A DNA stretch of 32,000 nt from Thermodesulfobacteriota bacterium (GTDB lineage: Bacteria > Desulfobacterota > WTBG01 > JAGOGO01), in NCBI GenBank assembly GCA_026625185.1, contig CP113000.1, positions 3,072,651-3,104,650 on the forward strand. Direction: 5' to 3'. A program made the position numbers and the translations under genes. The notes under the pieces are model-generated. The model did not search any database. It was not told the origin of the DNA and saw only the letters and a program-made list of their open reading frames with translations. How positions within the stretch are numbered: the stretch's first letter is position 1; each line of letters opens with the position of its first letter. This document shows, piece by piece, positions 1,437 through 30,319 of the stretch.

Positions 1437-1475
1437 AAAAAAAAAGTAGCTGGATATGCCCCCCCAAGCTACTTT
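1437..1475 (-). terminator. Rho-independent terminator ending AOR module 1
   Basis: Minus strand reads AAAGTAGCT-TGGGGGGGCATATCC-AGCTACTTT followed by a T run. The 9-bp stem is perfect and extendable by GG/CC. It lies between the ferredoxin gene and the HdrD-like gene. Confidence 0.65.
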
Positions 1476-1644
1476 CTGGTAGTCTTGTCAATTCTAAAAA
1501 ATGTTAGTTGAGCTTTGTAATATCCTCGGATCCACCCTTAGTAAAAAACCAAAAATTTTTTGATTATCAGCCTTATGGGAAAAAATAAAACACGGTACTA
1601 ATTAGGATCAAAAATTCGCCTCTGCATCCCCGTAAAGGCGTAAT

Positions 1645-2025
1645 TTAGATTTCCATAATAGATAAAGCCCCTTTCTCACAAACTTTGACGCAGTGCGGGT
1701 CTGGTGGATCGCCACAGAAATCGCACTTCAAAGCTACTCCGGTGTCCGGTTCGGTAAACCACGGTCTCGCCGGACAGGAAGATCGGCAAAGCGTGCAGCC
1801 ATCATATTGTTGCCCTGCGATAACAACATCGAATTTGGAGGTACATTCCGCAGTAGTAGTTGGTCCCGCAATGATCAAAAAAAATCGTTGTTCTTCTTCA
1901 TCCTCAAAAACCCGTATGCGGGACTTTTTGGGGTTAACCTCGTTGGTGTAATGCTTCATAGAACATGCTGTCTCACATTCTTGACAACCAGTACACTTAC
2001 CATGGTCTATTTTTAACCTTATCAT
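1645..2025 (-). CDS. 4Fe-4S dicluster ferredoxin-type protein (probable AOR electron-transfer partner)
   Basis: MIRLKIDHGKCTGCQECETAC, CTLCRSSCP and CDFCG..CVKVCE cysteine motifs. GGAGG lies 7 nt upstream of the ATG at 2025; the track ORF extends to 2070 without an SD. Last gene after AOR and the MoaD-like gene. Confidence 0.75.
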   Translation of the reverse strand: MIRLKIDHGKCTGCQECETACSMKHYTNEVNPKKSRIRVFEDEEEQRFFLIIAGPTTTAECTSKFDVVIAGQQYDGCTLCRSSCPARPWFTEPDTGVALKCDFCGDPPDPHCVKVCEKGALSIMEI

Positions 2026-2077
2026 TTTTGTTCCTCCTTCCTGGGAACTATGGTTAAAATCCCTCCCCAACTATTAT

Positions 2078-4731: not shown

Positions 4732-6030
4732 TCAGGAACAGTTGAGTATTCCTCGGCTCCAGAGACAGTCACCACACGGTTGCTCATACATATTACAGTC
4801 ACAAAAAAAGTCTACATCTGGAGAAAGGTACCCGCATCCATTTGACAACCCACAATCACCACAGGGCGAAAAAGGAAACTCTTCGACGTTCCTTCTAAAC
4901 ATTTGATAAATTTGTGAGTTCCAGATGGCTTCCAGATCTTCTTCCGGAACTTTGCCAAAACTGATGCTTTTCACTCGCTTAGGCCGCCCGTAATGAAAAC
5001 AAGAGTAGTCGTGGGATAACTGGTTGCAGGGCCTCACCCACCCATCCCAGGTGATAAAGCACGTCTGATTTTTAATAAAATTACATTCCCGTTTTGCTCG
5101 GGGAATGATCAAAGGGAGGTGAATTGCGAGATTCCGGGAAGTTGCAACCTTCTGACATTTTTCAAAAATCTTTAAATAATTTAAAAAGTTATTTCCATCT
5201 CTTTCAAGTACCTGAAGCATACTGCTAAGGATTCCTCCCATAGAAAATCCTTCTAAGGATACTTCATTAGCGAACTGTAGGACCAACTTCTCCTCTGGAG
5301 AGGGTTTTGATACTCCACTCCTGAATCTTTTTGTGCAAAGCCTTATTGCTAAAAGTCGAAATATTGAGGGGTTGATCCCCATTGCTTGAAGCCGTTCTTT
5401 GGCTTTCGTCAGTAGTTCCAAAACTTCCTGAGAGTGAGAGTCATAAATTACTTCTTTGGCGATAAGCTCGTTGGGTGGCAAAAGATTGTTAACCCACAGC
5501 TCATTCACCTCTTTTTCTGCAGCGAAGTGAACCAAATCCGGTAATTCCTCAACATTACTCTTCATTGCTACAAAGGATAAGGCAATTTTAAAGGGTTTTC
5601 GAGCTTTTTTTCTTATATCTCGAAACGTTTCTAAACCCTCAATCAATGACTCAAAATTTCCCTTTTCCCTGATCTGTGAAAACTTTTTCGGATCAAGACT
5701 ATCAATGGAGAGGGAAATACCGTCAAGACCAACTTTAATCATCTCCTTTGCCAGAGATCGGTCAACCAGGATAGCATTGCTGGTCAACTCAATTTTGCAA
5801 TGAGAAGGTGTATGAGTTCTGGCAATAAAAATCATATCGAGCAATTGACGCTGCAATAATGGCTCTCCGTAGCCGTTGAGGTTGATAGAATCTAAGGTGG
5901 CAAAGGAGGGAATAAGCCCCTTAAATGTGTCAATATCCATGTCACCGGTTTTCTCAGACCATGTTTGCCGGAGACAAATAGTACACGATAAATTACACTG
6001 AGAAGTTATTTCAATAATGAGATTTTTCAT
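4732..6030 (-). CDS. Radical SAM/SPASM-domain protein, candidate tungsten-cofactor-enzyme maturase
   Basis: CNLSCTIC (CxxxCxxC) at residues 12-19. C-terminal Cys-rich SPASM-like region (CGDCGLSNGCG, CDCNMYEQPCGDC). The position beside AOR and MoaD-like genes fits the family I remember as tungsten cofactor oxidoreductase radical SAM maturase (cf. cmo beside aor in Pyrococcus). The role is unproven. Confidence 0.8.
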   Translation of the reverse strand: MKNLIIEITSQCNLSCTICLRQTWSEKTGDMDIDTFKGLIPSFATLDSINLNGYGEPLLQRQLLDMIFIARTHTPSHCKIELTSNAILVDRSLAKEMIKVGLDGISLSIDSLDPKKFSQIREKGNFESLIEGLETFRDIRKKARKPFKIALSFVAMKSNVEELPDLVHFAAEKEVNELWVNNLLPPNELIAKEVIYDSHSQEVLELLTKAKERLQAMGINPSIFRLLAIRLCTKRFRSGVSKPSPEEKLVLQFANEVSLEGFSMGGILSSMLQVLERDGNNFLNYLKIFEKCQKVATSRNLAIHLPLIIPRAKRECNFIKNQTCFITWDGWVRPCNQLSHDYSCFHYGRPKRVKSISFGKVPEEDLEAIWNSQIYQMFRRNVEEFPFSPCGDCGLSNGCGYLSPDVDFFCDCNMYEQPCGDCLWSRGILNCS

Positions 6031-6293: not shown

Positions 6294-7394
6294 TTATTTC
6301 TGTTTTTTTGCTTCTTCCCACATTTCTCCAAAAGCTTTTTCGGTTTTTTCACTCATGACCCGCCAAATCGCCACTGTTTTGAAGTAATCGTTATTGCCAA
6401 CATGAAACAGCGCCTTTTCTTCCGGGATTACAAGGTTACTCACATTGTTTACCACCGGGGAGACACCCTGCTGTTTAACAACTGCAGCTTGGAATTTAGG
6501 AGACAGTTGCAGGTTGATCCACTCTTCGCAAAGTTTTTTGGTCATTCCTTTTGCCGCCTGGGTTATGCACCAGTAATCGATCCAGGCGGTGCCCCCTTCT
6601 TTCGGAGCAGCCAATTTCCAGTTGCCACCCTTTTGGTTTGCCTTAACCACCGCAAACCCCCAGGTTGTTGCCAGGTCTAACTGAGGAAACTCATCCGCAT
6701 TAGCTTCTCCATCCCAGAGGCTCTTGGCATTTTTTGCCAAAGCATTCAATTTTTCCTGAATCTTGGCTCTATCCAGTTTGTCAATGTCGAATATCTTATT
6801 ATATTTATAACCTAGTGAAAGGGCGGTAACCCAAATGTTGACCTTATGAAAGTTGTTGTTGATGGTGTACTTCTTGGCATATTTCGGATCCCAGAAGATA
6901 TTCCAGGTGGTCGGAGCCTCTTTAAAGACATTCGCGTTATAGGCAAGTCCATAAGGGCCACAGTTATAGGGAACGCCATACCGCTTTTCTCCGTGGATAA
7001 GCGAAGAATCCTTTTTGAAAAAGGGAAGAAGGTTTTTCAAATTAGGTAACGCGTCGGGTTTAATTGCCGAAAGAAGAATCTTACCTTTTTCGAAACAATT
7101 AAACCGGGGGGTCTTGGCCATATCAGCCGGGGGAGAAATCAGATCCGCGGTGCCATTTTTGGCAGCATTATAAAAATCCTCTTGACCTACAGCATAGGTT
7201 GGTTTTATTTCTACGTCTACTTTATATTTTTCTTTAACTAAACTCTTAAAGGCATCAATGACTGCCTGGTCAGCATAACCCTCCCAGCAGGTGATCCGTA
7301 TGGTTTCTTTTTTTACCTCCTGGGCAAGGCCATAACTGCAGAAAGAAATCGCCACAACCAATGCTCCGAGTAACAGCGCTAAAACTTTTTTCAT
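6294..7394 (-). CDS. Periplasmic solute-binding protein, PotD/PotF-like (ABC-type, orphan)
   Basis: MKKVLALLLGALVVAISFCSYGLAQE signal peptide, with GGAGG 6 nt upstream of the ATG at 7394; the track's 30-codon extension lacks an SD. Body length and strings (CWEGYAD, YGVPYNCGPYGLAYN, FWDPKY) look polyamine-type SBP. No permease or ATPase is adjacent. Confidence 0.65.
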   Translation of the reverse strand: MKKVLALLLGALVVAISFCSYGLAQEVKKETIRITCWEGYADQAVIDAFKSLVKEKYKVDVEIKPTYAVGQEDFYNAAKNGTADLISPPADMAKTPRFNCFEKGKILLSAIKPDALPNLKNLLPFFKKDSSLIHGEKRYGVPYNCGPYGLAYNANVFKEAPTTWNIFWDPKYAKKYTINNNFHKVNIWVTALSLGYKYNKIFDIDKLDRAKIQEKLNALAKNAKSLWDGEANADEFPQLDLATTWGFAVVKANQKGGNWKLAAPKEGGTAWIDYWCITQAAKGMTKKLCEEWINLQLSPKFQAAVVKQQGVSPVVNNVSNLVIPEEKALFHVGNNDYFKTVAIWRVMSEKTEKAFGEMWEEAKKQK

Positions 7395-7631
7395 TGTAGC
7401 CCTCCATTCTCCCCTTATGAGGGGATCTATAAGGTAAGAATAAATAACCAGTTGCACCTGAGAGAAACTAAAAAAATCTTTCACCCTCCCTTTTACAATA
7501 GGGAAGGTAGTTTTTTCTGCACCTCCTTTCCCATAACAAAAAACTTAATAAATTAAGAAAACATAAATGACTTTGTTTTTGATACCTCAAAAGGCTTTAC
7601 TCCCCGGCTTTCTCCCGTGATTTTAAGGGGG

Positions 7632-7850
7632 TTATCCTCCTCCTAATACAGGAAAGACAGCAAGAATATCATCTTCTTGCAAAGTATAGTCAGGTCCTAC
7701 ATGGAGGGAATTGACTAAAAGAGCACCTACCTCCACCTTATTAATATTGAGCTTTCCCAGAATATGGCTGACAGTAATGCCTTTAACATATTCCCACTCT
7801 TTTTCTTTAAATCTCCCTTCGCGAAGTGACGCAAATAATTTAACTTTCAT
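7632..7850 (-). CDS. MoaD/ThiS-family ubiquitin-like protein (paralog 2)
   Basis: 72 aa, MKVKLFASLREGRF...DDILAVFPVLGGG. Classic MoaD opening and Gly-Gly end. Sits 42 nt after the AOR-2 stop. Confidence 0.8.
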   Translation of the reverse strand: MKVKLFASLREGRFKEKEWEYVKGITVSHILGKLNINKVEVGALLVNSLHVGPDYTLQEDDILAVFPVLGGG

Positions 7851-7892
7851 GCTTAGCCGTGAGCCCCAAAATTTAATTAGTAGTCGTGGTTC

Positions 7893-9620
7893 TCAGAAAT
7901 TCCAGAAGGAATCAATTTCCTCATCCGTGAAATCCCACACCGCATTGTGGGGCAGCACCGGATCTTCAAAAAATTCCGGGAGCCGGTCATTTTTGTTGGT
8001 AAAGCCGGCCGCCAGATTAAATTCATGTTCCGTCCGCAGGATCTGTTTGCCCAGTTTGGTTATATCATCGGCGGTTAACGAGATGCCAAACCGGGCATTA
8101 ACCATATCAACCATGGCCGTAAAGCCCGCGGGAATGTCAATGATAGGAAAAGCGACAAAAATACACAAACCGGTGCTGTCGATAAAAGCGGTTGCAATCT
8201 GCAGGTTGCGGGAAAGCTCTATCTGCCCTTCTTTCTTCAAAGGATCAACAAAACCGCCGACCTTGAGAATATTGGTAGCAATAGTGTACCCGGCAGTATG
8301 GTCTGCTCCCATGGGTGAGGTTGCATAGGTAATGCCGATGCCCTTTACCGACCGGGGATCATACGCCGGGATGCCCTGATTCTTTACGACCGGCACTCTG
8401 GTGATACCGTAAGCTTTTCCGACTGCTGCTGCACCGCATCCGAGGATTCTTCCCAGTGGTGTTCCTGAACCAATTTCCTTAAGCAGCCCAAGCATACCCT
8501 GGCCGTCACCAAAGGGTATGATCCCGGCTTCCATGGCCACCCCGATCATGACCCCGGTTTCAATCGAATCAACTCCAATATCATCCATAAGGTGGTCCGC
8601 CTGGGCAATCACATCCAGATCATCGATACAGCAGTCCGCACCAAAAGCCCAGATGGTTTCATATTCAAACCCCGAAGTCATATACTTCTGGTCTTTATCA
8701 TTATAAACCTGGGAACACTGGATAACGCACCCGGTATGGCAGCCGTGACTTACTTTGCCTGATCGGCCGGCAATCGTGTCATGCATGGTTTCACCACTTA
8801 TCTTTTCATGTCCCGCAAACTTGCCATAGCGAAAGTTTTTGGTAGGCAGGCCACCGGCTTCATTCAGAATATTCACCAATACATCGGTGCCGTAATTCTT
8901 CAACGCCCCCCCACTGACCGGATGCTCAGCCAAAGCCTTGGCAAATATCTTACCGGCGGCCTTGAATTTCTTCGGATCAGCAATCGGAACACCCGGGGTA
9001 TCAGAATCATCAATGGTTATATACTTTATCTTTTTTGACCCCATCACCGCGCCGAGTCCACCCCGACCCAAACTGCGGATATAATCATCCCGGGTCCTTA
9101 CCGAGATATTGGCTGCTGCCAGACGCATCTCTCCCACCGGTCCCATACTGATGATTCCAATCTTTTTCCCCAACTTCTCAGTAAGGTTTTTTACCACCTC
9201 ATAGTTGCCTTTACCCCCAAGCTCGGTTTCTTCTTTTATGGTAACTCCATTTTTATCAACCTTGAGACTATAAAAAGTATCCTTCTCGGGCAGTCCATCA
9301 ATAATCAGGACTTTTATTCCCAACCGGGCAAAATTCGCGGCAGCCGTGCCTCCCGCATTACACTCTTTAATCCCTCCGGTTAAAGGGCTTTTCGCCCCAG
9401 CAGAAAGTCTTCCGGAGTTGGCACAGGTTGTACCCGATAGCAAACCCGGGGCAAATACCAGCTTGTTGTACTTACCCAACGGGTGACAGGTGGGCTTTAC
9501 TTCCTGAGCCACAATTGTGGAAGTCAAACCCCTGCCCCCCAGCCCTTTCCATTGTTCCGGTACTTCTTCATTCGTAACCTTCAAATCGGTCATATTAATA
9601 CGATAAATTTTATCGGGCAT
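7893..9620 (-). CDS. Aldehyde:ferredoxin oxidoreductase family protein (AOR paralog 2)
   Basis: 575 aa. Strings KIYRINMTDL..GGRGLTS, GCHTGCVIQC, FEYETIWAFG and YATSPMGADHTAGY are AOR-family hallmarks. Clearly divergent from paralog 1. Confidence 0.9.
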   Translation of the reverse strand: MPDKIYRINMTDLKVTNEEVPEQWKGLGGRGLTSTIVAQEVKPTCHPLGKYNKLVFAPGLLSGTTCANSGRLSAGAKSPLTGGIKECNAGGTAAANFARLGIKVLIIDGLPEKDTFYSLKVDKNGVTIKEETELGGKGNYEVVKNLTEKLGKKIGIISMGPVGEMRLAAANISVRTRDDYIRSLGRGGLGAVMGSKKIKYITIDDSDTPGVPIADPKKFKAAGKIFAKALAEHPVSGGALKNYGTDVLVNILNEAGGLPTKNFRYGKFAGHEKISGETMHDTIAGRSGKVSHGCHTGCVIQCSQVYNDKDQKYMTSGFEYETIWAFGADCCIDDLDVIAQADHLMDDIGVDSIETGVMIGVAMEAGIIPFGDGQGMLGLLKEIGSGTPLGRILGCGAAAVGKAYGITRVPVVKNQGIPAYDPRSVKGIGITYATSPMGADHTAGYTIATNILKVGGFVDPLKKEGQIELSRNLQIATAFIDSTGLCIFVAFPIIDIPAGFTAMVDMVNARFGISLTADDITKLGKQILRTEHEFNLAAGFTNKNDRLPEFFEDPVLPHNAVWDFTDEEIDSFWNF

Positions 9621-9670
9621 AATATCACCATGACCTTTTATTAATTATTTCAATGTGTTTTAATACAATT

Positions 9671-9698
9671 ATTTTATTCCAGCCATTAAATTAGTCAA
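9671..9698 (-). promoter_or_regulatory. Putative promoter for AOR-2 (TTGACT-16-TAAAAT)
   Basis: Minus strand: GTACTTGACT AATTTAATGGCTGGAA TAAAAT, about 45 nt upstream of the AOR-2 ATG. Shares the TACTTGACT box with two other promoters in the window. Confidence 0.4.
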
Positions 9699-9726
9699 GT
9701 ACTTAATGAGTTAAAGTTTAAATGCC

Positions 9727-9789
9727 TTCAAAAAAGACGAAATAATACTTTTTTATTTATTAAACTTACCATCAAACTGCTTTTTTGAA
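9727..9789. repeat. 10-bp perfect inverted repeat TTCAAAAAAG ... CTTTTTTGAA, 43-nt spacer
   Basis: Read directly (9727-9736 and 9780-9789). Lies between the two divergent promoters and ends 8 nt before the plus-strand -35. Low-complexity A/T runs, so chance is possible. Confidence 0.4.
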
Positions 9790-9797
9790 AAACTTAC

Positions 9798-9826
9798 TTG
9801 ACTTTTTTGATTAAATATAATATAAT
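9798..9826 (+). promoter_or_regulatory. Consensus sigma70 promoter (TTGACT-17-TATAAT) for the porin/EutBC unit
   Basis: TTGACT at 9798-9803, a 17-nt spacer, TATAAT at 9821-9826. Preceded by TAC, giving TACTTGACT. About 185 nt upstream of the first ATG. Confidence 0.6.
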
Positions 9827-10011
9827 TTGATTTTGTAGACCAAGAAAATGTTTAACCTTTAAAACCCCAGCAGAGGTCTTTTCCTCTTACGTTGCGCTTG
9901 TTGGTTGAATGTTGCTTATTATTTTAACTAAGGTTAGGGTTTTTTTGGTTTTGATTGCTTAACCAAACAATATTCATCAATACTAACTCTTCTAAAAAGA
10001 AAGGAGGCAGA

Positions 10012-10914
10012 ATGATGGGTAGATTAAAAAAAGGAAGAATTATTTACGTTTTTATTGCGATGTTTGCTCTGGTGGTTGCATTGGCTCCATTTTGTTACGC
10101 CCAGGGGGAAGCCCAGGGAGGAACTAAAGAGCTCGAAAAACCGACGCCCGTTCCCGGAGAAACTGAAACACCTGCCCCGGAGAAAGTGGAAATGCCTACA
10201 GTCAACATCAACACATCATTTTATTCACAATACATCTGGCGTGGATATGAACTAAGTCACAAAAGTTTTGTTATGTTCCCTTCTGTGACAGTCAGTTACA
10301 AAGGGTTTTCCCTGAATTGGTGGGGTGATATCGACACCGATTATGGAGCGGGACATCACTCAACAACTCGCCCCAATGATTTACAATGCTGGGAACAAGA
10401 TTACCTGCTATGGTACAGTAACTCCTGGCAAAAGTTTAATTATACTATTGGTTATATTTATTACCACACGATGCCTTCCCATACTCAGGAAGTCTGGGTG
10501 GCTTTAGGTTACAGTAACTTTCTCAATCCCACTTTCAGTGTCTGGCGGGATATAGAGCATGGTCCATCCTGGTATTATAATCTTGCACTGTCACACAGTT
10601 TCCCGATTTCCAAGGATCGCACCTGCTGGAAATATGATATGTCTTTCGATGTCGGGGGGTGGGTGAGTTATTACGACCAGGATCATTACTGGCAACCGGG
10701 TGTTCATCCAAAAACTGATTATAGTGGCTTCCATGATGGACAAGTCTGGACCGGCCTCAAGGTTCCGTTGAGCGATGTATGTTCCATTACGCCAAAAATT
10801 CAATACTCATTTCCTCTAAGTACCAAGGCAAGAAACAATATCAAATCTCTAAGTTTTGACGGGGATGATGCAAATTTTCTGTATGGTGGCCTAATCCTAG
10901 ATTATAATTTTTAG
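10012..10914 (+). CDS. Outer-membrane beta-barrel candidate, Gcw_chp/TorF-like
   Basis: AAGGAGG lies 4-7 nt before the ATG ATG at 10012/10015. Signal peptide MMGRLKKGRIIYVFIAMFALVVALAPFCYA|QGE, then a Pro/Glu-rich linker. NINTSFYSQYIWRGYELSHKSFVMFPSVTVSYKGFSLNWWG resembles the Gcw_chp opening as I remember it. Aromatic-rich alternating pattern ending in ...LDYNF (terminal F). Confidence 0.6.
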   Translation: MMGRLKKGRIIYVFIAMFALVVALAPFCYAQGEAQGGTKELEKPTPVPGETETPAPEKVEMPTVNINTSFYSQYIWRGYELSHKSFVMFPSVTVSYKGFSLNWWGDIDTDYGAGHHSTTRPNDLQCWEQDYLLWYSNSWQKFNYTIGYIYYHTMPSHTQEVWVALGYSNFLNPTFSVWRDIEHGPSWYYNLALSHSFPISKDRTCWKYDMSFDVGGWVSYYDQDHYWQPGVHPKTDYSGFHDGQVWTGLKVPLSDVCSITPKIQYSFPLSTKARNNIKSLSFDGDDANFLYGGLILDYNF

Positions 10915-10987
10915 GAATGACTCTTGTTTCTTTAGCTTAAAGATAAAGAGTAGTTGACCTTAAAATTTTTAAAAAAGGAGGTCCAAC

Positions 10988-13279
10988 ATGAAGAAGCAAT
11001 GCTTAAAATTACTAATGGCGAGCTTTGTCTGCCTCGGGTTATTCTTCCTGAGCACTTACTGCGGAGCGGTTACCATCAAAGATGTCAAGCCCGGGGAAGA
11101 CGTCTTTAGCTATATCGCCAGGGAAAAGGGGGGTTTTGACCAGACCCTCTACCAGCAAGTGATTGGGGCTGCAAATGCCTTTAAGGAAGGCGATGTGGCA
11201 ATTGGCGTGGGCGCGGATGATGAAGCAACCCGTCAAAATGCCCGCACCCTTCTGGCGAACACCAAAATAAAGGACCTGCATGCGCACCCCCTTTTGGTGG
11301 ATAGCGTCCAGAAGTTTATCTGGGCATCAACTGACAAGGCTAAGTTGTTAGTGGTTCAAGACTGGACCATGGGAAAGTTGAAAACCTTTCTTCTGACCAA
11401 ACCTGAACTGGAAATCAAGGCCATCATGGGCGGTTTAAACAGTGATGTGATCGGCTGTGTTCCCAAGCTCATGAGCAACCAGGAGCTGATTAAGGTGGAT
11501 GCGAAAATCTTTAATCCTCTCCCGGGTACCAAAATCGGGGCAAAAGGCTATCTGAGCGCCCGCATCCAGCCCAACTCCCCTACTGATGATCCTGAGGAAA
11601 TTGTCTGGCAGACCTTTGACGGTTTTTCCTATGCCGTAGGGGATTTGGTAATTGGGACCAACCCGGTGGACGGTTCAAAAGAAAGCACCACGAAAATAGA
11701 AACAGCCCTCAAGGATGTTGTTGATACCTTCAAATTAAACGGGGTTGTTCCCTGGTGCGTATTGGCCCATGTTGACGTTCAGGGTGAAATTTTTAAAGAA
11801 AATCCAAAGCTGGTTGATTTCTATTTCCAGAGCCTTGCCGGAACTGAAGCAGCCAACAAGGTCTTTGATGTGACCGTGGAAAAGATGATAAACCATGCCA
11901 AAGAACGCAAGGGTCAACGGTACGGGCTCTATTACGAGACCGGCCAGGGTTCTGACTTCACCAACGGCGCCGCCGAAGGTGTGGACATGGTGGTGCTTGA
12001 ATCACGCAAGTACGGTTTTGCCCGTGGGTTGAAAGAGGAACTTGCTAAAGTTCAGCCGCAGGGTGCCTATACCCACTTCAATGATGTGGCAGGTTTTATT
12101 GGGCCGGAAGTTTTCCGGACCAAGGAACAATTGGTGCGCTGCTGCCTGGAGGATATCTGCATGGGCAAACTCCACGGGCTTTCTGCCGGGCTTGATATTT
12201 GCTCAACCCTCCACATGTCAGTCAGCCTTGATGACCTCGACTGGTGCCAGGACCAGATTATGCCCGCAAATCCCTGTTATCTCATGGCGCTTCCAACCAA
12301 GAATGACCCCATGCTGAGCTACCTGACCACTTCCTATCAGGATCACGTGCGCCTGCGGGAAAAGTTCGGCTTCAAAGTTAATGATGCCATGTGGGAGTTC
12401 TTCAAGCGAATTCAGGTTATCGATCAGGCCGGCAAGCCCACGAAACATTTTGGCGATCCCATCTGGGTGTATTATCAGTACTGCCTGGCCAAGGGCGACA
12501 AGCGTGCCCAGGATGTAATCATGGCTGAAGGCAAAAAGAAGTTCGATGACATTCACGGCACCTGGCTGAAAACCGGCTACAAGGTTCCTCTTGCCTCCGG
12601 GCATGGGAAAACCATGGGTGATCTGAATCCCGAACTCGACAAAAAAATCCGCGCTCTCTACGCTGACGCCAAAAAAGCGATCTGGGCGGAATTCACTCCG
12701 GAATTTATAAAAACCATCCCCAATTCCCTTCAGGTTGCGACCATGTCAACAGACCGGGAAAACTACATCGTGCGTCCGACTACTGGTGAACAGTTGAACG
12801 ACCAGGCCGTAGCAACGCTAACCAAACTGAGAGACTCCTGGCAGGGCAAAGACCCGGACGTCCAGATTGTCATTGCTGATGGTTTAAACGCCAATTCAAT
12901 AATGGCACAGGGGCATCTCATCCCGTATATCAATGAAGTGAGAAAAGAACTCAAAGCTGCGGGCATAACGGTTGGTGAGCAAAATATAGTGATGACCAGC
13001 GGCCGCGTGAGAGCCGGTTATGCTGTTGGCGATCTTTTGTTTGCAAAATCTGATCCCAATAAGCACCGGGCAGTGCTCAACATTATTGGCGAGCGGCCAG
13101 GGACCGGCCAGAATGCCTTCTCCGTGTATATTGCGGCCCCCAAGGCGCAGGTCTGGGCGGAAAAGAAATGCGACCACAATATCGTGAAAGTGGTGTGTGG
13201 TATTTCCACCATGGCTACCAAACCGGAAACTGCAGCTCAAATGACAGTCAAACTGCTCAAACAAATGTGGGCAATGTAA
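10988..13279 (+). CDS. eutBC: Fused ethanolamine ammonia-lyase large+small subunit (EutB-EutC) with N-terminal signal-peptide-like segment
   Basis: AAGGAGG 6 nt upstream of the ATG. Residues 1-27 are MKKQCLKLLMASFVCLGLFFLSTYCGA. The EutB-like block runs ~55-500 (GDLVIGTNPVDGS, CVLAHVDVQ, YYETGQGS, GFIGPEVF, MGKLHGLSAGLD). The EutC-like block runs ~590-763 (DVQIVIADGLNANS, GRVRAGYAVGDLL, NIIGERPGTGQ). Aligned by eye against remembered E. coli EutB/EutC. Confidence 0.85.
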   Translation: MKKQCLKLLMASFVCLGLFFLSTYCGAVTIKDVKPGEDVFSYIAREKGGFDQTLYQQVIGAANAFKEGDVAIGVGADDEATRQNARTLLANTKIKDLHAHPLLVDSVQKFIWASTDKAKLLVVQDWTMGKLKTFLLTKPELEIKAIMGGLNSDVIGCVPKLMSNQELIKVDAKIFNPLPGTKIGAKGYLSARIQPNSPTDDPEEIVWQTFDGFSYAVGDLVIGTNPVDGSKESTTKIETALKDVVDTFKLNGVVPWCVLAHVDVQGEIFKENPKLVDFYFQSLAGTEAANKVFDVTVEKMINHAKERKGQRYGLYYETGQGSDFTNGAAEGVDMVVLESRKYGFARGLKEELAKVQPQGAYTHFNDVAGFIGPEVFRTKEQLVRCCLEDICMGKLHGLSAGLDICSTLHMSVSLDDLDWCQDQIMPANPCYLMALPTKNDPMLSYLTTSYQDHVRLREKFGFKVNDAMWEFFKRIQVIDQAGKPTKHFGDPIWVYYQYCLAKGDKRAQDVIMAEGKKKFDDIHGTWLKTGYKVPLASGHGKTMGDLNPELDKKIRALYADAKKAIWAEFTPEFIKTIPNSLQVATMSTDRENYIVRPTTGEQLNDQAVATLTKLRDSWQGKDPDVQIVIADGLNANSIMAQGHLIPYINEVRKELKAAGITVGEQNIVMTSGRVRAGYAVGDLLFAKSDPNKHRAVLNIIGERPGTGQNAFSVYIAAPKAQVWAEKKCDHNIVKVVCGISTMATKPETAAQMTVKLLKQMWAM

Positions 13280-13291
13280 TAATGTAATCCG

Positions 13292-13340
13292 AACCCCAAA
13301 GGAGGCACTATTTAGGTTCCTCTTTTGGGGTTTCTTATTC
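13292..13340 (+). terminator. Rho-independent terminator after eutBC
   Basis: AACCCCAAAGGAGG-(13 nt)-CCTCTTTTGGGGTT gives a 14-bp stem with one G-U pair, followed by TCTTATT. Starts 13 nt after the stop. Confidence 0.7.
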
Positions 13341-13407
13341 CCTTCCTCAAGTAATCGGGCCGCATTAATTCCTCAAACATTTCAAAACGATTGTTGAGCG
13401 TCCGGAA

Positions 13408-14199
13408 ATGGAAAAAAGTCAGACAACAATACTTCCACAGTACACCAGCCCGAAATTACTTCAAAAAATAAAATTATATATTTCTGCCTTTATCAGTGTT
13501 CCTTTTTACCGGTATGGTGAAATTGGAAATATCTGCTATACTATCGGTAAAAACATTCTAGATGGGGTTATTCTTTATACCATGTTTTCAATGGCTGAAG
13601 AGGAGTTAAAGGTAGCCGCCATCCTCGGAGTGGTAGTGAAATATGCTTATCCAGGAATAACTATGATATCAAGCACTTATACTTCAGCGTTTATTGACCA
13701 TATTGATTACCTGGAGGCGCTGGGAGAAGTAAAAAATCAAATTAAAAAATTAATTACCGCCCATGTAGGGATTGCCATTGGTCAGTCCTTGGGTGCGGTC
13801 TGGTTGCTTCTTTGCTTTCCGCCGTTTTTTAAGTTCTTTTTCCACAACCTGTCATGGGCAGCCCATTTGCTGGTAGTGATCTATTTTCTGCACCATGTGT
13901 GCGACGGTTCGGCACAAATCGTTGAAGGCAGAACCTGGTTTAAAATCGTGGAAATTAAAATTCGTCGCGGGGATGATATAAAACTGTCAAAAAATTTTTG
14001 GGTAATATATACCCTGGCTCAGAATTTTCAGCTTCTGCTCGGCCAGGTGTTCATATGGACAGCATTGGGCATTACCACCGCTTATTCACCGCATTTCACC
14101 GCCCCGCTGGTTATGGTTACGGTATTATGTGGCTTTTTCGGAGTAGTGATCTCAAAATTTATTCTGCCGGTTGCGTATAAATTAAAGTTTTGTTATTAA
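13408..14199 (+). CDS. Polytopic integral membrane protein, unknown family
   Basis: 263 aa with about 6-7 hydrophobic helices (e.g. GIAIGQSLGAVWLLLCFPPFF, WAAHLLVVIYFLHHV, APLVMVTVLCGFFGVVISKFILPV). Abuts the ABC ATPase gene. Weak SD. I recognise no family. Confidence 0.5.
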   Translation: MEKSQTTILPQYTSPKLLQKIKLYISAFISVPFYRYGEIGNICYTIGKNILDGVILYTMFSMAEEELKVAAILGVVVKYAYPGITMISSTYTSAFIDHIDYLEALGEVKNQIKKLITAHVGIAIGQSLGAVWLLLCFPPFFKFFFHNLSWAAHLLVVIYFLHHVCDGSAQIVEGRTWFKIVEIKIRRGDDIKLSKNFWVIYTLAQNFQLLLGQVFIWTALGITTAYSPHFTAPLVMVTVLCGFFGVVISKFILPVAYKLKFCY

Positions 14200-14222
14200 A
14201 TTATATCAGTCGCCCAAAGGAT

Positions 14223-14984
14223 ATGCTCGAATTAAATGACATCCGTTTTTCAATCGAAAACAAAACGATTCTGGATGGGATTTCAGTAAAGTTTGACCCG
14301 GGGAATATTCACGGAATCATAGGACCGAATGGTTCCGGCAAATCAACCATGCTGAAAAATATTTGCCGTATCTGGGAACCACAAACTGGCACGATTTTTA
14401 TTAATACCCAAGACTATCGGTCAATACCAAGAAAAGAGCTGAGCAAAATTGTTACCCTGGTTCCTCAACATACCAATGTTAGCTTTCCGATACCGGTTTA
14501 TGATATCGTTGCTATGGGGCGCAATCCTCATTTGGGACGTTTCGAGGCATTAAAAAAAGAGGATCAGGAAATAATCGACCGCGCTTTAAAGCAAACAAAT
14601 ATTTATGAGCTGAAGGATCGCAATATCAATGAATTGTCCGGCGGTGAGAGTCAGCTGTCAATTATCGCGCGCGCCTTTGCGACCGAGGCAGCGCTCATAT
14701 TGCTTGATGAACCAACCTCCGAGCTGGATATAAAACATACGCTGGCAATCATTAGTATTTTATACCGGCTAAAAGAACAAGGGAAAACTATCCTCGTTAC
14801 CATGCACGATCTGAATCTTGCCAGAAAGTTTTGCGATACCATATCCATCATTCACCAAGGGAAAATCTTCTTTACCGGTTCACCGGAACAAGCATTTTCT
14901 GAAAACAATATCCGACAGGTGTTTGAGGTCAATGTCAGAGAGGTCAAAAAAAACTCCAGCGTTTTTCTTGAGTTTTATGCATAG
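14223..14984 (+). CDS. ABC transporter ATP-binding protein, FecE/BtuD (iron-siderophore/cobalamin) type
   Basis: Walker A GPNGSGKST, signature LSGGESQL, Walker B LILLDEPTSELD, H-loop TMHDL. The MLELNDIRFS start at 14223 is preferred over the track's TTG at 14190. Confidence 0.85.
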   Translation: MLELNDIRFSIENKTILDGISVKFDPGNIHGIIGPNGSGKSTMLKNICRIWEPQTGTIFINTQDYRSIPRKELSKIVTLVPQHTNVSFPIPVYDIVAMGRNPHLGRFEALKKEDQEIIDRALKQTNIYELKDRNINELSGGESQLSIIARAFATEAALILLDEPTSELDIKHTLAIISILYRLKEQGKTILVTMHDLNLARKFCDTISIIHQGKIFFTGSPEQAFSENNIRQVFEVNVREVKKNSSVFLEFYA

Positions 14985-14987
14985 TAG

Positions 14988-16034
14988 ATGAAATATTTAA
15001 ATATGAAAAAAAAATTATTGTTCAACAGCGGATTGATATTGTTTTTGTTACTGGTCAAGGCCGCTAACTGCCAGGACAACGCACAGGCCAAAACCGTTAC
15101 TCCTCTCAATATGGGTGAGGTAAAAAATGCGTTAAGTTTTGTGAGAGGATGCGAAACAGCAAAAGAGGTGTGGCCACGGGTGGTCAGGTATAATTTCAAG
15201 ATTTACAATTTTAAGACTGACACCTTCGCTCAGGAAGAAAAAACTATCACGCTTAACAAGAAGCCTTTGAGAATTATACCCCATGCTGTCGGTGTAACTG
15301 ATATTTTATGGGCAATTTGTCCCCGGGAGCGCCTGGTTGGTTTTAATGAATTTTCTGCTGATCCCGAATTCAGCTTAATTGCCGACAAGGTGCGAGCAAA
15401 AGGCCCGATTTTTCAATCCAAGCAAACTGAACTAATCATCGGTTACCAACCGGATCTGGTTTTTACCGTGTTTTATTCTGGCGGTGATTTTAAAGAAAAA
15501 TTAAAGCAGGCAAAAATCCCTTATTGTGATTTGGGATACTTTGGAACGATCGAGTCAATTAAAGATCAAATTCTTCTTATCGGCAAAATTATCGGCGAAG
15601 AGAACAATGCCCAGGCACTGGTAAAGCTGATAGATGACAAGATCATGGAATTAAAAAGCAAGCTTCCCAATGTAACCAAACCAATTCGGGTCCTCTATTA
15701 TGATGAGGGAGGATATATTCCGGGAATATCGTCAAACTTTAATTCAATTTGTAAAATTATTAACGCCATCAATGTTGGTGCTGAGCAGGGGATTAAATCA
15801 TGGTCTCAGATTGATAATGAAACCCTGCTCAAATGGAATCCTGAGGTAATCGTTGTCCCTGAAGGCAGCAATCTTAAAACACAACTGATGTCAAACAAAG
15901 TCCTTTCCCATGCCCAGGCAATTAAAAACAACAAAGTTTTTTATATACCGGGGGTTTATCTGAGGGTTGATTCTCAGTATATGGTGCTAAGCGCCAATCT
16001 GCTCGCGGGGATTATTTATGCCCAAAGGCTTTAA
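14988..16034 (+). CDS. Periplasmic binding protein, BtuF/FecB-like (Peripla_BP_2 type)
   Basis: Signal peptide MKKKLLFNSGLILFLLLVKAANC. PLRIIPHAVGVTDILWAICPRERLVGF and PEVIVVPEG are typical of this cluster-A SBP class. An alternative start is at 15003. Confidence 0.75.
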   Translation: MKYLNMKKKLLFNSGLILFLLLVKAANCQDNAQAKTVTPLNMGEVKNALSFVRGCETAKEVWPRVVRYNFKIYNFKTDTFAQEEKTITLNKKPLRIIPHAVGVTDILWAICPRERLVGFNEFSADPEFSLIADKVRAKGPIFQSKQTELIIGYQPDLVFTVFYSGGDFKEKLKQAKIPYCDLGYFGTIESIKDQILLIGKIIGEENNAQALVKLIDDKIMELKSKLPNVTKPIRVLYYDEGGYIPGISSNFNSICKIINAINVGAEQGIKSWSQIDNETLLKWNPEVIVVPEGSNLKTQLMSNKVLSHAQAIKNNKVFYIPGVYLRVDSQYMVLSANLLAGIIYAQRL

Positions 16035-17067
16035 GCTTATTATCAAAAAAGAATTTTTATTATTTGTTGTCTTATCTGGTTTAATACTCATGGGAGGATT
16101 TTTTGCCCTGACCTCTGGCCCCTGGTTTATAGCCGTCACTGATGTTTTTAAAATTGTGATGTACAAATTGGGATTATTTTCAGGAAGCATTAATAACGTT
16201 GAAACCACCATCGTCTGGGATGGACGGCTTCCCCGTTTTATCGTGGGTGTTCTGGTGGGTTTTTCTCTTGGAGCGGCAGGCACTATTATGCAGGGACTTT
16301 TTAAGAACCCGATGGCCAGCCCTGGCGTCATTGGTATTGATTCCGGGGCTGCGCTGGGAGCAGTGGTGGTGATTTATTTGGGACTGGCCGCCAAGTCGCT
16401 CTTTGCCCTTCCGCTTTCTGCCATAGTATTTTCCATCCTCACCCTTATTATGGTCTTTACCATCGCAACGTCACGGGGGCAAACCTCGATATCCACGCTT
16501 TTGCTTGCCGGGATTGCTTTTAATTTTATCTTTAGCGCCCTAACCTCCTTTGTTATCACCCTGAGCACCAGGGAGTTTGATGTCGGGCGGGTCATTGTAA
16601 CCTGGCTCATGGGTGACCTCAATAATCGTTCCTGGGAGCATGTCGGCATTGTTTTCCCCACGACGCTTATCGCTCTGGTGGGAACACTTTTCTTTGTTAA
16701 GGATCTCAACATTCTCATGCTCGGAGAAGAAACCGCAGCCAACCTGGGAGTCAATATCAGACTTGCTCGTAATGCCCTCCTGTTTTTTTCTTCGGTGGAA
16801 ACTGGGGGGGCGATTGCGGTTTCCGGAGTGATCGGGTTTGTCGGTCTGGTTGCGCCGCACATTATGCGCAGTCTTATCGGCCCGGATAACAAAAAGCTAA
16901 TATTTTTTGCCGGGCTGCTGGCAGCGGTATTTGTTATCTATGCCGATCTTTTTGTCAGGCTCATCGTTAAGGTTGATCTTAAGATCGGTATTGTTACTTC
17001 ATTGCTGGGAGGACCATTCTTTCTCTATCTGATTATAAAACATAAAAAACGCTTTGAGTATATGTGA
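16018..17067 (+). CDS. FecCD-family ABC permease (BtuC-like)
   Basis: 349 aa, about 9-10 TM. RLPRFIVGVLVGFSLGAAGTIMQGLFKNPMASPGVIGI and GVIGFVGLVAPHIMRSLIG are FecCD hallmarks. Overlaps the SBP gene by 17 nt. Confidence 0.85.
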   Translation: MPKGFKLIIKKEFLLFVVLSGLILMGGFFALTSGPWFIAVTDVFKIVMYKLGLFSGSINNVETTIVWDGRLPRFIVGVLVGFSLGAAGTIMQGLFKNPMASPGVIGIDSGAALGAVVVIYLGLAAKSLFALPLSAIVFSILTLIMVFTIATSRGQTSISTLLLAGIAFNFIFSALTSFVITLSTREFDVGRVIVTWLMGDLNNRSWEHVGIVFPTTLIALVGTLFFVKDLNILMLGEETAANLGVNIRLARNALLFFSSVETGGAIAVSGVIGFVGLVAPHIMRSLIGPDNKKLIFFAGLLAAVFVIYADLFVRLIVKVDLKIGIVTSLLGGPFFLYLIIKHKKRFEYM

Positions 17068-17121: not shown

Positions 17122-18144
17122 ATGCAAGCAACGATATTGGATACCAAGAGCACAGAAACTTTATTTGATCTTTATGCACAAAAAATTGAGCGGGTTAAAG
17201 CTGAAATTGCTAAAGTGGTTATCGGCCAGGATAAGATGATACAGCTTATGATTTTATCACTTCTTTCCAAAGGACATATCCTACTCGAAGGAGTTCCTGG
17301 ACTGGCAAAAAGTCTTGCGGTTGAGACCTTTGCGAAATCGATCGGCGGGGATTTTAGGCGTTTTCAGTTCACCCCGGACAAGATGCCCAGTGACGTAACC
17401 GGAACCATGGTATACAATGACCGAGATAAAAAATTTGTTTTTTTCTTTGGCCCTATTTTTTGCAACATTTTCCTCGCCGATGAGATAAATCGGGCTTCTC
17501 CCAAGGTGCAATCGGCCTTATTACAAGCAATGCAAGAAAAGGAAGTAACGATTGAATGCAATCGCTATGATATCCCCAATCCTTTTATGGTGCTTGCCAC
17601 TCAGAACCCGATTGAGCAAATTGGTACCTACCCGTTGGCTGAATCCCAAGTTGACCGCTTTATGGTGAAATATGATGTCGGGTATCCGGACAAAGAGGAG
17701 GAGCTCGAACTTATCCAGAGAAAAAATTCGAATTTTGACCAATTAAAAGCGGAGGTAAAAACTGTCCTTGCGCTGGAAGACATTATCAACACTCAGCAAC
17801 TCATTCATGACCAGGTGCGAGTGAGCCAGAAGGTCATGGACTATATATTAAATATTTGCATCGCCACCCGACCTAATGAGACCTATAAATCTCAAAAAAT
17901 TAAAACGGACATTCATAAGTACATCAGGCTCGGGGCATCTCCCCGGGCGACAGAATTTTTGCTTGCCTTGTCAAAATCTTTTGCTTTTTGTCAACACCGG
18001 GACTTTGTTAATTTTGATGATGTGTTGACATGCGCAGCCCATGTTCTCAGACATCGCATCTTGCTTAACAGTTTTGCCCTTTCACAACAAGTTTCGTCGG
18101 ATATGCTGATTGAAGAAATAATTAAGATAATAAATCCTTATTAA
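17122..18144 (+). CDS. MoxR-family AAA+ ATPase
   Basis: VIGQDKMIQLMILSLLSKGHILLEGVPGLAKS (Walker A), FLADEINRASPKVQSALLQAMQE (Walker B/sensor), ATQNPIEQIGTYPLAESQVDRF. Classic MoxR strings. Confidence 0.9.
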   Translation: MQATILDTKSTETLFDLYAQKIERVKAEIAKVVIGQDKMIQLMILSLLSKGHILLEGVPGLAKSLAVETFAKSIGGDFRRFQFTPDKMPSDVTGTMVYNDRDKKFVFFFGPIFCNIFLADEINRASPKVQSALLQAMQEKEVTIECNRYDIPNPFMVLATQNPIEQIGTYPLAESQVDRFMVKYDVGYPDKEEELELIQRKNSNFDQLKAEVKTVLALEDIINTQQLIHDQVRVSQKVMDYILNICIATRPNETYKSQKIKTDIHKYIRLGASPRATEFLLALSKSFAFCQHRDFVNFDDVLTCAAHVLRHRILLNSFALSQQVSSDMLIEEIIKIINPY

Positions 18145-18147: not shown

Positions 18148-19026
18148 ATGGCCAAAACTGAGAAAAGTCTTCTGTCCAAAAAAGAGTTGTTAGACATTTT
18201 TATCAATCACCGGGTACATTCTCCCTTTCCCGGTGATTGGGAAAGCACTTTCAAAGGGCTGGGGTATGAGTTTTGGTCACTCAGGGAACTGGGGCCGGGT
18301 GATCCCTTCAGTCATATTGACTGGAAGGCAACTGCAAAGACCGGCAAATACTATGTACGGGAATATCTTGCGGAAAGTTATTTCAACGTCATGATTCTGT
18401 ATGATATCAGCGCATCGGTTGGATTCGGCAGAAAAGAACTAATACAGGCTCATATCGCAGTTTCCATCGCCTATAGTGCGATCACCAGCAACAACGGATG
18501 CGGATTAATTTTGTTTGCAGATGAGGTCAAAGGATACATTCCCCCGCGCATGGGGAGGTCACACTTCATGGAAATCATAACCGCAATTGTAAATGCAGCA
18601 CCAGTATCGTGCCGGGAGACAAAAATCCAGAACGTAATGACAAAATTAATGACCGAGGTTCCGGAAAGCTTAACTTTCATCCTGTCCGATTTTATGTACC
18701 CGCTCGATTTCACTTACAGTTTTCATAGCACCGTCCATGGAACTAACAAACATGAGGTAAAGGCCGTTCAGGTGCTTGAGGAGGGAGAAATTTCCCTGCC
18801 ACCCCATTCCCGAGGTCTTCTCCCCCTTTATGATTATGAGAGCGGAGAAAACATTCTGTTTGACCTAAGCAAGTGGAGCCTTTACAATCAAAAAATGCAG
18901 GAGACACGGGACACGATCAAACATCGCCTCGATCGTGCCGGAATCGATGTTGTAACCATAACTCCGACCGATGACATCGGGAAAAAGATTAACACCTTTA
19001 TGAAACGACCACCATCATCCTACTAA
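18148..19026 (+). CDS. DUF58 domain protein (MoxR-associated)
   Basis: HIDWKATAKTGKYYVREY motif and a VWA-like fold without MIDAS. Starts 4 nt after the MoxR stop, which is the canonical MoxR-DUF58 pairing. Confidence 0.8.
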   Translation: MAKTEKSLLSKKELLDIFINHRVHSPFPGDWESTFKGLGYEFWSLRELGPGDPFSHIDWKATAKTGKYYVREYLAESYFNVMILYDISASVGFGRKELIQAHIAVSIAYSAITSNNGCGLILFADEVKGYIPPRMGRSHFMEIITAIVNAAPVSCRETKIQNVMTKLMTEVPESLTFILSDFMYPLDFTYSFHSTVHGTNKHEVKAVQVLEEGEISLPPHSRGLLPLYDYESGENILFDLSKWSLYNQKMQETRDTIKHRLDRAGIDVVTITPTDDIGKKINTFMKRPPSSY

Positions 19027-21761: not shown

Positions 21762-21768
21762 GTCCACT

Positions 21769-26199: not shown

Positions 26200-26208
26200 A
26201 TATTCACC

Positions 26209-30309: not shown

Positions 30310-30319
30310 TCTCTGTCCA

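Follow-up and report, generated by a model that had tools for sequence, protein, structure and literature searches.

A Sec-type signal peptide on a fused EutB-EutC protein suggests a periplasmic ethanolamine ammonia-lyase within a large family of apparently exported enzymes

Ethanolamine ammonia-lyase (EAL) is a textbook B12 radical enzyme of the cytoplasm or the Eut microcompartment, where it normally consists of two separate subunits, EutB and EutC, and is served by the EutA reactivase. A gene in a 32,000-nucleotide stretch of a Thermodesulfobacteriota genome (GenBank assembly GCA_026625185.1, contig CP113000.1, positions 3,072,651 to 3,104,650; this whole stretch is called the window, and coordinates follow its own numbering) departs from that description, given that it encodes both subunits as one polypeptide with an apparent export signal before EutB. 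The locus raises the question of where such an enzyme works. We consider it likely that the protein is a single-chain, adenosylcobalamin (AdoCbl)-dependent EAL that carries a cleavable signal peptide and works in the periplasm, with neighboring genes in the pathway and accessory roles proposed below. It would represent the Sec-type members of a large, exported group of single-chain EALs that is apparently undescribed in the searchable literature.

The eutBC open reading frame (ORF; 10988-13279, plus strand) encodes 763 amino acids and opens with MKKQCLKLLMASFVCLGLFFLSTYCGA, followed by VTIKDVKPGEDVF, the latter being the predicted mature N-terminus after A27. The large-subunit part was recognized by NCBIfam EutB NF011649 (residues 47-503, 631 bits against a cut-off of 554 bits) and by Pfam EutB PF06751 (residues 55-486, E 1.7e-144, 482 bits), in agreement with an earlier note on this DNA that had placed the onset of EutB similarity at about residue 55. 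The small-subunit part matched Pfam EutC PF05985 over residues 553-761 (E 6e-34, 117.8 bits against a cut-off of 25.8 bits); the note was right that EutC is fused in the same chain, and its onset moves from about residue 590 to about 553. The NCBIfam EutC equivalog scored 96 bits, below its cut-off of 230 bits, which is consistent with a divergent, N-terminally truncated, fused EutC. A linker of about 50 residues joins the two domains. The solved EutB structures 2qez and 3abo align with window residues 56-492, and EutC chains in the PDB align with residues 558-760.

The residues that we take to be the substrate-binding and catalytic set of E. coli EutB (R160, Q162, N193, E287, D362, and M392, reportedly from Shibata et al. 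2010) are all six identical in the aligned window protein. Five of these positions are invariant or nearly so among 85 sequences of the apparently exported clade described below (window R192, 85/85; Q194, 84/85; N225, 84/85; E317, 85/85; D403, 85/85), and the position equivalent to M392 is I instead of M in 48 of the 85. Near-invariant catalytic residues argue that the members of this clade are working enzymes and not relics. By its domains and aligned residues, the window protein is a genuine single-chain, large-plus-small-subunit EAL that is predicted to be catalytically competent, and its chemistry is presumably that of canonical EAL, the AdoCbl-dependent conversion of ethanolamine to acetaldehyde and ammonia. 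It shares its domains and these residues with the canonical EutB and EutC of E. coli, Salmonella, and Listeria (PDB 3abo and 2qez) but differs from them in being one polypeptide with an export signal before EutB. The N-terminus of EutC, which carries the microcompartment targeting peptide in the canonical enzyme, is a linker here. In a further difference from canonical EAL, no bacterial microcompartment shell gene, eutA, or eutT was found among the ORFs of the window.

Since the argument turns on the first residues of the protein, the start codon matters. The Shine-Dalgarno sequence AAGGAGG lies 6 nucleotides before the ATG at 10988, as the earlier note had read it, and this spacing supports that ATG as the true start. 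A downstream start was rejected, as no codon between M10 and V58 is ATG, GTG, or TTG and the Shine-Dalgarno sequence serves the ATG at 10988. A start at M10 would still keep the hydrophobic core. The public annotations differ at this point: NCBI record WAC09159.1 begins at Met10 (754 amino acids), losing the charged n-region, and JGI calls the 763-residue form.

By rule, rather than by a trained predictor, the window protein shows the charged n-region, hydrophobic h-region, and small residues at -3 and -1 of a Sec-type signal peptide. Its n-region has three lysines and no arginine, its h-region of about 14 residues is strongly hydrophobic, and C25 and A27 occupy positions -3 and -1. For comparison, we took the best 120 matches from a search of 5.8 billion proteins, nearly all of which are about 760 amino acids long with both domains and which come from Thermodesulfobacteriota, Geobacter, Geomonas, and Desulfuromonadales, and used the 112 with a complete N-terminus for signal statistics. 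Position -1 was Ala in 112/112, and position -3 was Ser, Cys, Ala, or Gly in 112/112. The signal regions of these homologs had a mean length of 24.7 residues, a net n-region charge of +2.1, and an h-region of about 20 uncharged residues on average. Identity to the window protein was 34% in the signal region versus 79% in the next 33 residues, and mean column entropy was 1.6 bits in the signal versus 0.56 bits after it. A drifting signal sequence with fixed -3 and -1 positions points to a cleaved signal peptide, in which selection acts on the physical pattern and on the signal peptidase I site. The basic n-region, hydrophobic core, and small-residue c-region that the earlier note described are thus conserved as a signal peptide in all 112 homologs. 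The note's statement that the protein has no twin-arginine motif also holds, as S/T-R-R-x-F-L-K is absent from the signal and the n-region contains no arginine. A lipoprotein reading of LSTYC-G was rejected because Tyr at -1 is unfit for a lipobox and the Cys is Ser in 74/112 homologs. Taken by these patterns, the window protein is predicted to carry a cleavable Sec-type signal peptide.

More distant relatives point in the same direction by other means. In a scan of one genome per species (185,579 species), the open frame upstream of the match could be read in 80 loci, and the N-termini were classified. Canonical twin-arginine translocation (Tat) signals were found in 63 of these loci and Sec-like signals as in the window in 11; four were unclassified, and two were without a signal, one of them truncated by a contig end and the other from an Anaerolinea metagenome-assembled genome. 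Examples of the Tat signals are GLSRRDLLVMAGTAAATLASYSHTARAA in Ensifer, Sinorhizobium, Rhizobium, Mesorhizobium, and Bradyrhizobium, MSRRRFLSVMGAAGVTLAG, leading to ..ANAA, in various Desulfobacterota, and ISRRKFCRIMAGTLISSGLLPPLLQA in Smithella; GLSRRDLLVMAG and MSRRRFLSVMG are further instances of the motif among related loci. Signals of all types precede the same conserved mature N-terminus, ..I.(D/E)VK.GEDVF.Y.., and they differ in physical character. The maximal 10-residue Kyte-Doolittle mean of the h-region was 2.06 +/- 0.28 in the twin-arginine class versus 2.6-2.9 in the Sec-like class, and the signal is 27 residues long in the window protein versus about 35-45 in the Tat relatives. 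Clustering at 50% identity gave representatives with more twin-arginine signals, which in P0371, P0378, and P0430 are followed by a lipobox cysteine, and P0361 combines an RK motif with a lipobox. It is difficult to see why one conserved mature protein should carry three kinds of export or anchoring device if it did not work outside the cytoplasm, and the signals thus suggest that the whole clade is extracytoplasmic. The proposal of the earlier note that the catalytic body lies outside the cytoplasm is supported both by the cleavage rule in 112/112 homologs and by the Tat and lipobox signals of sister lineages. Its worry that there is no export route for a folded, cofactor-loaded enzyme applies to the window lineage, which is the exception, but not to most family members, which do use Tat signals. 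As a side observation, the distant representatives P0362 (1110 amino acids) and P0499 (1144 amino acids) have N-terminal extensions of about 400-480 residues before the EutB-matching region, and in P0362 the match continues through the EutC part too.

A neighbor-joining tree of 93 mature sequences, computed without support values, orders these types. Eight signal-less fused proteins (P0379, P0381, P0418, P0429, P0438, P0440, P0444, and P0467) branch outside the exported clade, which is monophyletic and in which the Smithella Tat group branches first. The Sec-like group (the window, L001-L004, L007, L019, L057, L071, Geobacter, and Geomonas) is monophyletic within this clade, and its sister is the large group of Tat-type members from rhizobia and other Desulfobacterota. 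Parsimony favors, provisionally, a Tat-type ancestor followed by a switch from Tat to a Sec-like signal in the window lineage.

We propose the following pathway for such an enzyme. Ethanolamine would cross the outer membrane through the barrel encoded upstream of eutBC and would be split in the periplasm into NH4+ and acetaldehyde. The acetaldehyde would diffuse inward, where the divergently encoded, cytoplasmic aldehyde:ferredoxin oxidoreductase (AOR) would oxidize it to acetate. The periplasm would thereby replace the Eut microcompartment in keeping the formation of aldehyde apart from the cytoplasm, and the cell could do without an ethanolamine permease. For the Tat-type members, export of a folded, AdoCbl-loaded enzyme would fit the signals. 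In the window lineage, a Sec-like signal would have replaced the ancestral Tat signal, and the apo-protein would be exported unfolded and acquire AdoCbl in the periplasm. The signal is short, very hydrophobic, and free of arginine; this fits Sec, and Sec export implies that the cofactor is bound in the periplasm.

The consequences would reach beyond this locus. What is known as an enzyme of the cytoplasm and the microcompartment appears here as a large, phylogenetically broad exported clade, with Tat, Tat plus a lipid anchor, or Sec as the export device and with Geobacter relatives, syntrophs, and Sinorhizobium, Rhizobium, and Bradyrhizobium strains among its hosts. If this is true, AdoCbl radical chemistry occurs in the periplasm, and there is a microcompartment-free way to hold acetaldehyde production outside the cytoplasm. 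It would raise the mechanistic problem of B12 supply and repair in the periplasm: new routes must then exist by which AdoCbl reaches the enzyme and by which its inactivation is handled without ATP. The natural switch from Tat to Sec, together with a lineage-specific set of accessory genes, offers a tractable comparative system for periplasmic cofactor loading, with cultured, genetically accessible hosts in S. meliloti strains, Geomonas sp. RF6, and Syntrophotalea carbinolica. The interpretation of ethanolamine and B12 turnover in sediments, soils, and the rhizosphere would be affected as well.

The first of the proposed partners is the gene that precedes eutBC (Table 1). The protein itself reached no Pfam or NCBIfam model at E <= 0.01, save for a weak PagP match. 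Among 340 homologs found, 18 of the 22 sampled (41-71% identity) matched PF09694, with a best E of 1.5e-07, and one homolog is labeled TIGR02001 by its source. Its AlphaFold2 model (predicted local distance difference test score [pLDDT], 78) is all beta-strand after the signal helix, and the top Foldseek matches of this model (E 1.5e-06 to 1e-04) were PcoB, FapF, OmpG, NanC, and Tsx, which are small monomeric outer-membrane channels. By sequence and predicted fold, the gene encodes an outer-membrane barrel and probably a divergent member of the Gcw_chp family, an affiliation that is transitive via its homologs. The earlier note had given it a signal peptide of its own, which stands, and a Gcw_chp/TorF-like character, which holds only in this transitive sense. 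Compared with the Gcw_chp/TorF putative porins (PF09694, TIGR02001), it is alike in that its homologs reach the model and its predicted fold is a small monomeric beta-barrel, and it differs in scoring below the PF09694 model. No member of this family is known to have a demonstrated substrate. The barrel gene adjoins and precedes Sec-type EutBC in L001-L006, L057, L071, and L081 (Geomonas sp. RF6), and it lies downstream of Tat-type EutBC in L011, L014, L058, and L075. The link to the exported enzyme thus holds across export types, and this co-occurrence lends weight to the earlier suggestion that the barrel is a functional partner of the enzyme. A Gcw_chp/TorF paralog in Pelobacter carbinolicus adjoins an ammonium transporter gene (PMC3543383).

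Downstream of eutBC lies a set of genes that accompanies the Sec-type lineage. The first encodes an orphan polytopic membrane protein, TM263, which is the constant downstream partner of Sec-type EutBC. It has about 314 homologs, all unnamed and without a Pfam domain, and its conservation equals that of the enzyme (71-91% identity among the 120 best homologs). The gene occurs in L001-L004, L019, L057, L071, and L081, is absent from all Tat-type loci, and is seen beside Sec-type EutBC only. TM263 gave no Pfam match at E <= 1, no NCBIfam match at E <= 0.01, and only chance-level results in a PDB profile search (E 1.4); its AlphaFold2 model (pLDDT 51) was unusable and was left out of the fold search. 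Polar motifs that are invariant in TM263 are YRYGE, KYAYPG, HHxCDGS, and EGRTWFK. A type II ATP-binding cassette (ABC) system follows. Its best NCBIfam matches were below cut-off (corrinoid ABC ATPase, 232 bits against 537; BtuC, 264 bits against 461), and it matched BtuF weakly (E 2e-05), with heme and siderophore systems scoring similarly. Among distant members of the family, P0361 and P0364 stand alone with no informative neighbors, and P0371 occurs with a BtuFCD-like trio: at L085 (528-5749), this distant EutBC, with its Tat motif and lipobox, is directly preceded by its own Peripla_BP_2, FecCD, and ABC ATPase genes. Judged from these sequences, L085 is an independent association of a putatively exported EAL with a corrinoid-type transporter.

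The set continues with a MoxR AAA+ protein, a DUF58 protein, and two von Willebrand factor A (VWA) proteins, VWA1 and VWA2, interleaved with g538 and g279. Hydrophobic segments flank each VWA domain, and no membrane segment is predicted in either MoxR or DUF58. The VWA domains are tentatively placed on the periplasmic side, between membrane segments, by hydropathy and the positive-inside rule. Six further genomes have this MoxR module in synteny with Sec-type EutBC (L002-L004, L019, L057, and L081). The block of TM263, ABC system, and MoxR module is whole in L002-L004, L019, L057, and Geomonas RF6, partial in L001 and L071 (at contig ends), and absent from all 63 Tat-type loci. A 12-gene cluster is syntenic in L002-L004, L019, L057, L071, and L081.

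A precedent for such a module beside an exported enzyme is provided by the pyrroloquinoline quinone (PQQ) methanol dehydrogenase MxaFI, which is Sec-exported and loaded with its cofactors in the periplasm, PQQ requiring the binding-protein-like chaperone MxaJ (PMC12276312). Loading of Ca2+ into this enzyme needs MxaR (MoxR), MxaS (VWA domain), MxaA, MxaC (VWA), MxaK, and MxaL (VWA) (PMC12276312). The window has MoxR, DUF58, and two membrane VWA proteins in one same-strand run beside the presumed client enzyme, and its MoxR-DUF58-x-VWA-x-VWA order is the same by domain type as that of MxaRSACKL, again beside an exported enzyme and with a periplasmic binding protein. The likeness is one of domain order; the enzymes are unrelated, and the cofactors are PQQ and Ca2+ in one case versus AdoCbl in the other. 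By analogy with MxaJ and MxaRSACKL, TM263, the ABC system with its BtuF-like binding protein, and the MoxR-DUF58-x-VWA-x-VWA module would be the best candidates for cofactor supply, insertion, or exchange. A bolder step, which we put forward as possible though doubtful, is that the Sec-type lineage encodes a new system for assembling, and perhaps repairing, an AdoCbl enzyme in the periplasm. In such a system, corrinoid would be delivered or recycled across the inner membrane by TM263 together with the ABC system and its BtuF-like binding protein. From the cytoplasm, MoxR-DUF58 would work through the VWA proteins, which are anchored in the membrane, and power the insertion or exchange of the cofactor in exported EutBC. 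The MoxR module would then replace the ATP-dependent EutA reactivase, and the periplasm would be a functional alternative to the Eut microcompartment.

Several points weigh against a periplasmic enzyme supported in this way. Suicide inactivation readily befalls AdoCbl-dependent EAL, and the repair known for it, by EutA, needs ATP, which the periplasm lacks. A Sec-exported apo-enzyme would also need AdoCbl to be delivered outside the cytoplasm. The evidence for localization is all sequence-based, and the direction of the switch from Tat to Sec is provisional because it was read from a distance tree without support values. With respect to the accessory genes, their tie to EutBC is one of synteny alone, L007 is Sec-like and belongs to the same clade without having them, and g538, g279, and TM263 match no known family in Pfam or NCBIfam. 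Operons of the MoxR-DUF58-VWA ('Bat') type are, moreover, common in bacteria in other contexts.

We considered four other explanations for the N-terminus. The one that survives best, although we regard it as unlikely, is that the window protein is exported by Tat despite having no arginine pair, so that it folds and binds AdoCbl in the cytoplasm and its hydrophobic KK/KR signal engages TatBC. Most of the family has canonical Tat signals, and the passenger is thus evidently Tat-compatible; 85/113 of the Sec-like close homologs keep K-R or R-K at the boundary of the n- and h-regions, and three have RR. Huang and Palmer (PMC5539426) found that hydrophobic twin-lysine Sec signal peptides (DsbA and OmpA) can mediate Tat export. 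The window n-region MKKQCLK is nonetheless without any arginine, the signal is shorter than those of the Tat relatives by the lengths given above, and the h-region hydrophobicity of the Sec-like class, compared with that of the Tat class, is a classical Sec or signal recognition particle signature. The accessory gene set, moreover, appears exactly in the lineage where the arginine pair was lost.

It is quite improbable that the segment is an uncleaved signal anchor that tethers the enzyme to the outer face of the inner membrane, beside TM263 and the ABC system. The long, very hydrophobic h-region of the homologs would suit an anchor, a conserved membrane protein is encoded immediately downstream, and the distant members that are apparently lipid-anchored by a lipobox indicate that membrane attachment is tolerated in the family. 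Against this, the cleavage positions are fixed (Ala at -1 and a small residue at -3, each in 112/112 homologs) and the remainder of the segment drifts, which reads as selection for signal peptidase I cleavage.

A cytoplasmic enzyme, with the hydrophobic N-terminus as a mis-called start, a tether with the body inside, or another kind of targeting helix, is very improbable in our view. Every characterized EAL is cytoplasmic or in a microcompartment, its cofactor and repair system are cytoplasmic, and the NCBI annotation begins the protein at M10. However, there is no alternative start from M10 to residue 57, M10 itself keeps the hydrophobic core, and a strong Shine-Dalgarno sequence serves 10988. 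Positive charges N-terminal of the core predict an N-in, C-out orientation, encapsulation peptides are amphipathic and not uniformly hydrophobic, relatives would have no use for their Tat signals and lipoboxes if the protein were cytoplasmic, and the window contains no shell genes. An artefactual origin of the fusion or signal peptide through assembly, frameshift, or gene calling, which the earlier note had raised for the fusion and for which nothing was found in favor, can be dismissed, as the same fusion of about 760 amino acids recurs in >110 independent metagenome and genome sequences, including the complete genome of Geomonas sp. RF6 and Sinorhizobium chromids, and was noted earlier in the finished genome of P. 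carbinolicus (PMC3543383).

The periplasmic, Sec-type reading can also be set against what has been published. Aklujkar et al. 2012 described duplicate 'unusual' fused eutBC1/eutBC2 genes in Pelobacter (Syntrophotalea) carbinolicus, an organism that grows on ethanolamine and whose genome is without eutA (PMC3543383). The neighbors of these genes (a conserved hypothetical protein, a periplasmic binding protein, a multi-transmembrane protein, a corrinoid-like ABC transporter, VWFA proteins, an ATPase, and AOR) were read as uptake systems, and no signal peptide or extracytoplasmic location was mentioned (PMC3543383). Judged from the description in that paper, the fusion and the layout of its neighbors are the same as in the window. 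A 2018 review of ethanolamine utilization mentions neither the fusion nor export. The earlier note knew of no description of this arrangement, and our search likewise found no description of an exported EAL in the searchable literature, with subscription journals largely outside the search and an incidental listing in a table of Tat substrates possible. Among other Tat-exported cofactor enzymes, reductive dehalogenases are corrinoid enzymes exported by Tat to the outer face of the cytoplasmic membrane, as Tat-type EutBC would be. They differ in using the corrinoid as a redox or nucleophilic cofactor with Fe-S clusters and not in AdoCbl radical chemistry, and the window protein lacks the arginine pair.

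The earlier note also held that a promoter and a terminator bracket exactly the barrel gene and eutBC, which is doubtful. Promoter-like sites are not enriched in the region (8 versus 8.6 in shuffled sequence), and the U-tract of the hairpin after eutBC is interrupted (tail UUUCUUAUU). None of 200 shuffles folded as well as the hairpin (0/200), and a consensus scan did not list it. A gap of 128 nucleotides after eutBC is followed by ten same-strand genes that are syntenic in relatives. Because of this downstream synteny and the interrupted U-tract, the hairpin more likely attenuates transcription than ends the unit, and a two-gene operon boundary is not secure. Neither a cobalamin riboswitch nor any other was found in the leader or intergenic region at Rfam gathering thresholds or at E <= 1 (9500-14300), and the 184-nucleotide leader folds no better than shuffled sequence (z = -0.42). 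On the minus strand, a divergent promoter-like site for AOR lies at 9698-9671. Both divergent sites share the extended -35 context TACTTGACT as a 17-nucleotide inverted repeat (9685-9701 and 9795-9811), and this inverted context suggests common regulation of the AOR unit and the barrel-eutBC unit.

Table 1. Features of the window around the fused eutBC gene, in order of position
Feature	Position	Strand	Remarks
PotD/YdcS-like periplasmic binding protein	6294-7484	-	Pfam SBP_bac_6; NCBIfam PotD/YdcS
ThiS/MoaD-like protein	7632-7850	-	Pfam ThiS; 72 aa, Gly-Gly end; between AOR and PotD-like gene
Aldehyde:ferredoxin oxidoreductase (AOR)	7893-9620	-	Pfam AFOR_N and AFOR_C; divergent unit 6294..9620
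Sigma-70-like promoter TTGACT-17-TATAAT	9798..9826	+	Ahead of barrel gene; 11/12 positions, best site in region
Outer-membrane beta-barrel, probable divergent Gcw_chp/TorF member	10012..10914	+	300 aa; signal peptide residues 1-30, ..APFCYA before QGE
Shine-Dalgarno sequence AAGGAGG	10975..10981	+	6-nt spacer TCCAAC, then eutBC ATG at 10988; read from sequence
Predicted signal peptide of EutBC, residues 1-27	10988..11068	+	n-region MKKQCLK, h-region LLMASFVCLGLFFL, c-region STYCGA; predicted cleavage between A27 and V28; hydropathy
EutB large-subunit domain	11126..12496	+	Residues 47-503; NCBIfam and Pfam matches
EutC small-subunit domain	12644..13270	+	Residues 553-761; Pfam match
Terminator-like hairpin, probably partial	13291..13333	+	After eutBC; 15 pairs, -26.7 kcal/mol, z = -4.65
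Orphan polytopic membrane protein TM263	13408..14199	+	128-nt gap after eutBC; absent from Tat-type loci
Type II ABC system, ATPase	14190-14984	+	Pfam ABC_tran
Type II ABC system, periplasmic binding protein	14988-16034	+	Pfam Peripla_BP_2
Type II ABC system, FecCD/BtuC-like permease	16018-17067	+	Pfam FecCD
MoxR AAA+	17122-18144	+	AAA_3, E 4e-58
DUF58 protein	18148-19026	+	Pfam DUF58, E 1e-38
Signal-peptide protein g538	19045-20661	+	No Pfam/NCBIfam match
VWA1	20658-21761	+	VWA_2; BatA/BatB-like matches in VWA pair
g279	21688-22527	+	No Pfam/NCBIfam match
VWA2	22542-23558	+	VWA_2; BatA/BatB-like matches in VWA pair

The divergent unit recurs with the enzyme as well, AOR and/or the PotD-like binding protein being found beside EutBC in L004-L006, L008, L057, L071, L075, and L081. 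The small ThiS/MoaD-like protein may act as a sulfur carrier for AOR's tungsten or molybdenum pterin cofactor. A second AOR (2391-4226, minus strand) adjoins a radical-SAM/SPASM protein (4732-6030, minus strand), and ferredoxin-like and CCG-domain proteins lie beyond it at 213-2070 (minus strand). Tat-type eutBC, too, has genes for acetaldehyde handling at its side: in about 17 rhizobial loci, a gene for a zinc-dependent alcohol dehydrogenase (Zn-ADH) is found directly upstream, and L010 has acetate kinase. The loci with Zn-ADH, a cytoplasmic enzyme, include L025, L032, L035-L037, L041, L044, L045, L047, L048, L051, L052, L060, and L073 (~8.6-9.8 kb), and the Zn-ADH-eutBC pair is carried on pSymB-type chromids in Sinorhizobium meliloti and S. 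fredii. An SbmA/BacA-type ABC gene beside Ensifer EutBC was considered as a conserved B12 link and rejected, being present in 5 loci only. Upstream of the EutBC cluster of Geomonas sp. RF6 (CP087999.1; L081, 77-2923) lies a gene for a hybrid of sensor histidine kinase and response regulator with a PocR domain, which has no counterpart in the window and is a candidate regulator responding to ethanolamine or B12. At the far end of the window (23667-30456, minus strand), a full-length ydaO-type (c-di-AMP) riboswitch (30318-30456, 90 bits) precedes a kdpA-kdpB-kdpC operon and a gene for a KdpD-like sensor.

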